12,066 nt of DNA from a virus. Lineage: Duplodnaviria > Heunggongvirae > Uroviricota > Caudoviricetes. The stretch lies in IMG/VR virus record IMGVR_UViG_2859793810_000009. One strand, given 5' to 3'. The stretch's first letter is position 1. Every line of letters begins with the position of its first letter. Shown here piece by piece: positions 11,572 through 11,586 of the stretch. The notes under the pieces are model-generated. The model worked only from the letters and a program-made list of their open reading frames with translations, was not told where the DNA came from and did not search any database. Position numbers and translations under genes: made by a program.

Positions 11572-11586
11572 CCCCCCCCCCCCCCC
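11572..11586. repeat. C15 homopolymer (G15 on the minus strand)
   Basis: Fifteen consecutive C, counted directly; the run ends 39 nt upstream of the invertase ATG. Confidence 0.9.

Follow-up and report, generated by a model that had tools for sequence, protein, structure and literature searches.

The window, by which we mean the whole 12,066-nt stretch of DNA analyzed here, carries 15 consecutive cytosines shortly before an invertase reading frame. This raises the question of whether the run is a genetic switch, a recombination scar, an assembly artefact, or a repeat that slips without consequence. To our knowledge, E. coli and Shigella very seldom have long G/C homopolymers. Direct reading gave CACCCAATTCT-C15-GACTTTTGACGCAGTG at the run, with the C15 at 11572-11586, and CACCCAATTCT-C15-GACTTTTGACGCAGTGTCTTGTTAACAGGGGGATTTACC-ATG from the run to the invertase start codon at 11626, a spacing of 39 nt. 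The coordinates and the spacing given in the original prediction were confirmed. The run had also been placed downstream of a TTGACG hexamer, and here the order was reversed: TTGACG, at 11592-11597, sits between the run and the ATG. The features on either side of the run are as follows.

9301..11127, minus strand: ipaHb, 1,827 bp, 608 aa, a T3SS effector E3 ubiquitin ligase (NCBIfam IpaH_Shig, 564 bits, above the cutoff)
11128..11470, minus strand: putative long 5' UTR of ipaHb, AT-rich (GC 0.25-0.33), placed from the position of the MxiE box and PMC3299695
11487..11522, no strand assigned: perfect 16-bp inverted repeat with a 4-nt loop, which holds the MxiE box and is terminator-like on the plus strand
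11503..11519, minus strand: MxiE box of ipaHb (GTACTGTTTTTTTAAAG), with 2 mismatches to the consensus, from a pattern search
11545..11571, plus strand: conserved left flank (…CCATGGAAGGAGATCACCCAATTCT), where the AT-rich ipaH upstream region gives way to higher GC, from the comparison of loci
11572..11586, plus strand (G15 on the minus strand): C15 homopolymer, a hypervariable mononucleotide repeat, from direct reading, with lengths of 6-23 in related loci with the same flanks
11587..11607, plus strand: conserved right flank (GACTTTTGACGCAGTGTCTTG), TTGACG at 11592-11597 included, from alignment with intact pin loci and BLAST
11626..12066, plus strand: pin-type serine invertase pseudogene, 146 codons and then TAA at Gln147, from its translation against K-12 PinE

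The length of the run is far above that expected from base composition. It is the sole G/C run of at least 8 nt in the window, where one further homopolymer of at least 8 nt occurs (T9 at 8761-8769). Six overlapping C10 words were observed against 0.02 expected, and none of 200 dinucleotide-preserving shuffles reached six. Elsewhere in 345 kb of fetched E. coli and Shigella loci, no G/C run longer than 9 nt was found.

The locus is the ipaHb2 ("ipaH7"/ipaH2610-class) prophage-remnant island adjoining yfhH in S. flexneri. The gene order in orthologous loci is tail-fibre genes, ipaHb (reverse), spacer, pinE pseudogene, yfhH, tadA, mltF, and purL. The window was identical to AE014073 and CP026788 in the 2,871 nt that precede the run and the 480 nt that follow it, and the sole difference between these two genomes in that region was C14 versus C15. 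The minus-strand ORF at 9301-11127 was identified as ipaHb because of its size, since 1,827 bp is the size of ipaHb in Table 1 of Bongrand et al., whose nomenclature was used (PMC3299695). The same ORF is annotated as IpaHb in the orthologous loci. The gene corresponds to class 5, or ipaH2610, of Dranenko et al. (PMC9046306), and the ipaHb2 copy is the ipaH7 of strains 301 and 2457T (PMC3299695). As at other class 5 ipaH genes (ipaHb/ipaH2610), a 1,827-bp ipaHb is combined with an MxiE box and a long AT-rich upstream region. The modal upstream length of class 5 genes is 491 nt (PMC9046306), which fits the short (C7-8) allele of the spacer. Neither PMC3299695 nor PMC9046306 mentions the poly-C run or its length variation, and no mention of the run was found in the literature searched. 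The paralogous ipaHb1 island has a stretch in common with the window that extends from the tail-fibre genes through 94 nt inside pin.

The rest of the island was also compared. At 9134-9142 of the window, about 143 nt between two 9-nt direct-repeat copies are missing relative to most related loci (L001, L006, L009, and L010). The loss falls in a DUF4376 tail-fibre-assembly-like gene and leaves a 181-aa product that ends exactly at the end of ipaHb. The 181-aa product is annotated in AE014073 and CP026788 as well, a hint that they share the deletion. Two insertion sequences lie in the window, at 5028-6358 and 1569-2836. An IS2 copy breaks a tail-fibre gene, and the same insertion is present in EIEC VL40 and O121; an IS3-family element has its ORFs at 1616-2437 and 2470-2772 on the minus strand, and two copies of it also occur in L005. 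E. coli EC20017429 (L045; NZ_CP071711.1, 4285915-4292373) carries an apparently intact prophage at the same yfhH-adjacent site, in which the invertible tail-fibre segment is complete, with both pixL and pixR, and pinE is full-length. At the DNA level it has the pin gene alone in common with the window, so different phages have used the yfhH site or swapped the pin module. The tail-fibre/DUF4376 module was used to look for a pre-ipaH relative of the prophage, and at an identity of at least 94% it was found in EIEC genomes only (10 genomes, 3-7 places each).

To compare run lengths, 31 loci with the same flanks were collected by a gapped pattern scan that took one genome from each species, by similarity searches, and by two look-ups of exact proteins. 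The lengths were as follows.

yfhH-side locus, Shigella, 19 public assemblies: C7, 7, 8, 9, 9, 10, 13, 14, 14, 15, 17, 17, 18 (five assemblies), 21, 23
yfhH-side locus, named assemblies: CP000266, C8; AE014073, C14; CP026788, C15
yfhH-side locus, window: C15
yfhH locus, EIEC VL40 and O121: C6
ipaHb1 paralogue beside pgl: C7 in five of five loci

Counting the tract across related genomes had been proposed as a check, and it gave 11 different lengths, from 7 to 23, among 20 same-locus sequences with the same flanks. The commonest length in the 19 assemblies was 18. Sequences with zero substitutions in 1,000 + 480 flanking nt had nevertheless C9, 13, 14, 15, 17, 18, or 23. The ipaHb1 paralogue remained constant at C7 despite 4-58 flanking differences. 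The left flank was identical in almost all related loci; the departures were L003, which has an ISEc20 insertion, and L031, L034, and L038, where an N run or possible errors were seen. The data indicate that length is polymorphic in close relatives whose flanks are conserved, as in a hypermutable homopolymer. Together with the shuffles and the 345-kb comparison, the 11 lengths bear out the view that the run is highly unusual and prone to slippage. In replication slippage, instability is expected above a length threshold. Short alleles that are stable over deeper divergence, together with long alleles that differ in otherwise identical sequences, point to such threshold behavior.

Three of the records have peculiarities of their own. 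At the window-equivalent 11570-11571 of L038 (CP102221.1), the CT 5' of the run reads CC, so that C18 arises there by substitution and not by insertion; the CC is either a sequencing error or a base substitution beside the run. L009 (NZ_CP012732.1, a 'plasmid' of S. flexneri 1a 0228) is a 25-kb record that holds the chromosomal ipaHb2-yfhH-tadA region with C21, and mis-assembly has been suspected for this strain (PMC9046306). CP178302.1 (L004/L005, 'Escherichia coli strain ECMA0423', 4.44 Mb) contains both ipaHb islands, their runs being C17 and C7 as in S. flexneri. The flanking sequence is identical to that of the window, and around yfhH several genes seem to be broken up. The record probably represents Shigella flexneri deposited under the name of E. 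coli.

The gene downstream of the run is no longer a complete invertase. The window version has the resolvase domain alone, its DNA-binding helix-turn-helix domain being removed by the stop at Gln147. The remainder coding for this domain lies beyond the window and is still recognizable after the stop in longer loci. RefSeq describes the gene in orthologous loci as 'pinE ... internal stop'. At the DNA level, pin is 94-96% identical to pinE of e14-type prophages, and in this respect the locus resembles the Pin/Gin/Cin/Hin systems (e14 P segment), in whose intact relatives the 26-bp pixR occupies the corresponding upstream position. In K-12 e14, in EC20017429 (at the same yfhH site), and in AH19B041, pixR (TTCTCCCAAACCAACGTTTATGAAAA) lies 52 nt before the pin ATG, and its partner pixL lies inside a tail-fibre gene. 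Sites of the pix, gix, cix, and hix kind are 26-bp imperfect palindromes of the TTCTCNNAAACCNNGGTTTNNGANAA type that occur as an inverted pair. The window contained none at up to 3 mismatches to the degenerate consensus, or at up to 8 mismatches to pixR on either strand. In contrast to Pin, Gin, Cin, and Hin, the invertase is truncated, both pix sites are gone, and ipaHb with its upstream region stands in place of the inverted tail-fibre genes; the C run is no pix site. The window begins to match canonical pin loci only at 11604-11612 (BLAST and alignment), about 20 nt to the right of the run. By this alignment, the native pixR and the following 35 nt were replaced in the window locus.

Transcription signals around the run were then considered. 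The sigma-70 promoter scan found no −10 partner for TTGACG at 16-18 nt, and on this ground TTGACG was rejected as the −35 of pin. The scan also found no sigma-70-like pair that uses TTGACG or spans the run. The nearest plus-strand site of this kind, TTAAAA-18-TATAAT at 11505-11534, is upstream and would transcribe through the run. The tract is thus not situated between the promoter elements of a functional gene, as it is in phase-variable promoters. The original prediction that length could alter invertase expression did not hold up: the gene is a pseudogene, it has no pix site to act on, and TTGACG has no −10 and is on the other side of the run. A structured RNA or known RNA family over the spacer was also rejected, since no Rfam family matched across it and its RNA fold was no better than those of shuffles (z = 0.22). 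The ORFs that cross the run are merely 20-34-aa poly-Pro or poly-Gly frames without support.

On the other side of the run lies the ipaHb promoter. The published clone of the ipaHb 5' UTR ends at +331, leaving 13 nt to the start codon (PMC3299695). This puts the ATG near +344 and the transcription start near 11470. With a start placed in this way, from the MxiE box and PMC3299695, the run would be at about −102 to −116. The MxiE-regulated minimal promoters that have been studied span −57 to +11, and that of ipaHb is weak (PMC3299695), so that upstream sequence could matter more than assumed. On the plus strand, the inverted repeat at 11487-11522 also bears a mirror copy of the MxiE box with 5 mismatches.

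Based on these results, we believe that the run is probably a neutral mononucleotide microsatellite driven by slippage rather than a genetic switch; both the slippage and the neutrality are what we infer from the comparison of loci. The ancestral state would have been C6-C7, in a decayed prophage by yfhH, within the spacer that separates a pin-type invertase gene from the divergent promoter of ipaHb. The S. flexneri ipaHb2 copy may then have expanded beyond the length at which replication slippage becomes frequent, and later gains and losses of Cs would have occurred by slipped-strand mispairing. Neutrality is suggested because the invertase has a nonsense codon, its recombination sites are gone, and no promoter element lies across the run. 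A further reason is that roughly 100 nt separate the run from the ipaHb transcription start, which puts the run beyond the minimal promoter mapped for MxiE control. Among the points against the neutral reading is the following. Long alleles, with a mode of 18, persist in S. flexneri, which we take to be proficient in mismatch repair, and simple drift does not explain this.

The main rival is a contingency locus, in which the length of the run tunes a neighboring gene and gives phase-variable or graded expression. We regard this as unlikely. Two routes can be proposed. In the first, the minus-strand effector gene ipaHb2 would be affected through the geometry of its upstream DNA or a G-rich structure at about −110. 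In the second, plus-strand read-through into pin would be affected, with the poly-C RNA serving as a Rho loading site or pairing with the GGGGG Shine-Dalgarno. In favor of such regulation, the run is long and polymorphic, the TTAAAA-18-TATAAT site would transcribe across it, and the weak minimal promoter of ipaHb makes other inputs conceivable. A close precedent is the 'C-stretch' in the promoters of fim2, fim3, and fimX of Bordetella, a poly-C of 10-19 nt that is polymorphic among strains and changes by slipped-strand mispairing (PMC1891110). Both are long poly-C tracts upstream of a gene, and 10-19 is similar to the 7-23 found here. By the positional criterion of the Bordetella work, tracts 21-80 nt upstream of a start codon likely overlap a promoter (PMC1891110). 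The present run, 40-54 nt upstream of the ATG, would thus count as likely promoter-overlapping and falls in the zone rated most promoter-prone. However, in Bordetella the gene is functional, the C-stretch separates its activator site from its −10 box, and changes in C-stretch length have been found to change transcription. Here a promoter element across the run is absent, and the gene that follows is a pseudogene.

In mechanism, the present run resembles the homopolymeric tracts of Bordetella, Neisseria, and Campylobacter. Contingency loci of Neisseria, Haemophilus, Campylobacter, and Helicobacter also contain G/C tracts that are far longer than chance would give and change length reversibly at high frequency. 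Those tracts switch surface or virulence genes on and off from within the reading frame or the core promoter. The present run, in contrast, is in the non-coding spacer of a decaying prophage in an enterobacterium, and we know of few contingency loci of such kind in enterobacteria. Further evidence against regulation comes from the locus itself. The pin pseudogene is without substrates, and no RNA structure signal was seen. The run is outside the −57 to +11 region, and at other promoters regulated by MxiE this region suffices for its control. A stable C6-7 is enough for the ipaHb1 paralogue and the EIEC orthologues, and the lengths in S. flexneri form a nearly continuous spread and not two states. 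A more specific form of the idea is that this is a genuine enterobacterial contingency locus, in which a G/C run some 100 nt before the weak ipaHb2 promoter, itself dependent on MxiE, modulates the effector or silences read-through into the prophage remnant. It could act through the geometry of the DNA, through a G-quadruplex or an i-motif, either of which might form from about 15 nt, or by loading Rho onto poly-C RNA. We give this form a slimmer chance still. If it were true, it would provide stochastic, heritable heterogeneity in effector dosage.

Another explanation is that the run is a recombination scar that marks the join of ipaH-carrying DNA with the invertase region, either as a degenerate pix-type crossover site (TTCTCCC...) or as the footprint of a mobile element such as ISEc20. 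This we consider improbable. Its attraction is that TTCT and the first three Cs equal the first 7 nt of pixR, which is found upstream of pin in intact relatives. The GC content also climbs from 0.25 to 0.49 just left of the run, and 11545-11607 has no counterpart in canonical pin loci, its right-flank part (11587-11607) being confined to ipaHb islands in the alignment. Yet the likeness to pix past the 7-mer is weak. The best score was 14-15 of 26 at hypothetical tract lengths, and at least 15 was reached by 2.3% of shuffles; since the identity with pixR does not extend, and no match at up to 8 mismatches was obtained, a pix remnant was rejected.

The flanks themselves also argue against a join. 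Each flank was searched in IMG/VR viral contigs, the right flank in JGI metagenomes, and the spacer in 5,426 E. coli genomes, phages, and plasmids. The left flank (…GGAGATCACCCAATTCT) without the right flank (GACTTTTGACGCAGTGTC…), or the reverse, was not found in these searches, which returned true ipaHb loci or chance matches only. The two flanks therefore did not turn up separately in different elements; they always occur together, the paralogous island included, and separate source elements are not demonstrable. The boundary of pin homology, at 11604-11608, is 18-22 nt to the right of the run. The suggestion that the run is the right-hand junction of an ipaH cassette, or a scar whose two sides align to different source elements, was accordingly not upheld. 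Because the paralogous island shares the tail-fibre genes through to pin, the run is internal to the duplicated unit. With the rise in GC on its left and the boundary of pin homology on its right, it lies within a 60-nt zone, and it is not demonstrably a breakpoint. A scar would account for C6-7 at most and not for the 7-23 among loci with the same flanks.

The relation of ISEc20 to the run is a point for the footprint variant. In EIEC RMDEC465 (L003:5050-6000, window-equivalent 11577/11580), an internally deleted ISEc20 (IS110 family) is situated within the run, which reads C6 to the left of the element and C7 to the right. Other ISEc20 copies are bordered by C4-C6 on both sides: three of them (L047-L049) had C5-6 on the left, and C4-6 stood on the right in the two for which that junction was read. 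These junctions suggest that a C run is the core common to the target and the donor junction of ISEc20. At the right end of the RMDEC465 copy, TAGGGGCACCCCC is duplicated in tandem, and in EIEC O121 an IS1 lies 35 nt left of the run. Excision of ISEc20 was considered as a one-step source of C13 and was rejected by reasoning, since excision or homologous deletion restores one core copy; the series 7, 8, 9, 10, 13, 14... fits stepwise slippage. A GnT mutational-hotspot motif was absent, as an A follows the run on the G strand.

The weakest explanation, a sequencing or assembly artefact in which homopolymer errors turn a short run into a long one, draws on the error-proneness of long homopolymers on all platforms, one assembly with an N run beside the tract, two with aberrant flanking bases, and two that report C7 at the same locus, but it is very unlikely, for at least 13 Cs were present in 13 independent assemblies from different projects, AE014073 (C14) among them, the paralogous C7 was called consistently in the same genomes, and errors of 1-2 nt cannot make 15-23 from 7. 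The existence of the long tract is therefore not an artefact. A short, stable C run in orthologous loci had been named as the sign of one, and such a run does exist, in the EIEC orthologues and the paralogue (C6-7) only and not in S. flexneri, which indicates a lineage-specific expansion rather than an artefact. The exact C counts, including the 15 given here, are uncertain and technology-sensitive, and errors of sequencing or assembly may account for part of the variation in length.

The run is probably among the fastest-evolving sites of the S. flexneri chromosome, changing while 1.5 kb of flanking sequence stays constant. Assembly breaks and false indel calls are to be expected at this point beside an effector gene, and for outbreak strains the run could be a marker of very high resolution, although prone to homoplasy. 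It would have a larger importance only if its length affects the expression of ipaHb2. Overall, the locus illustrates that a short run in decaying prophage DNA can run away past the slippage threshold.
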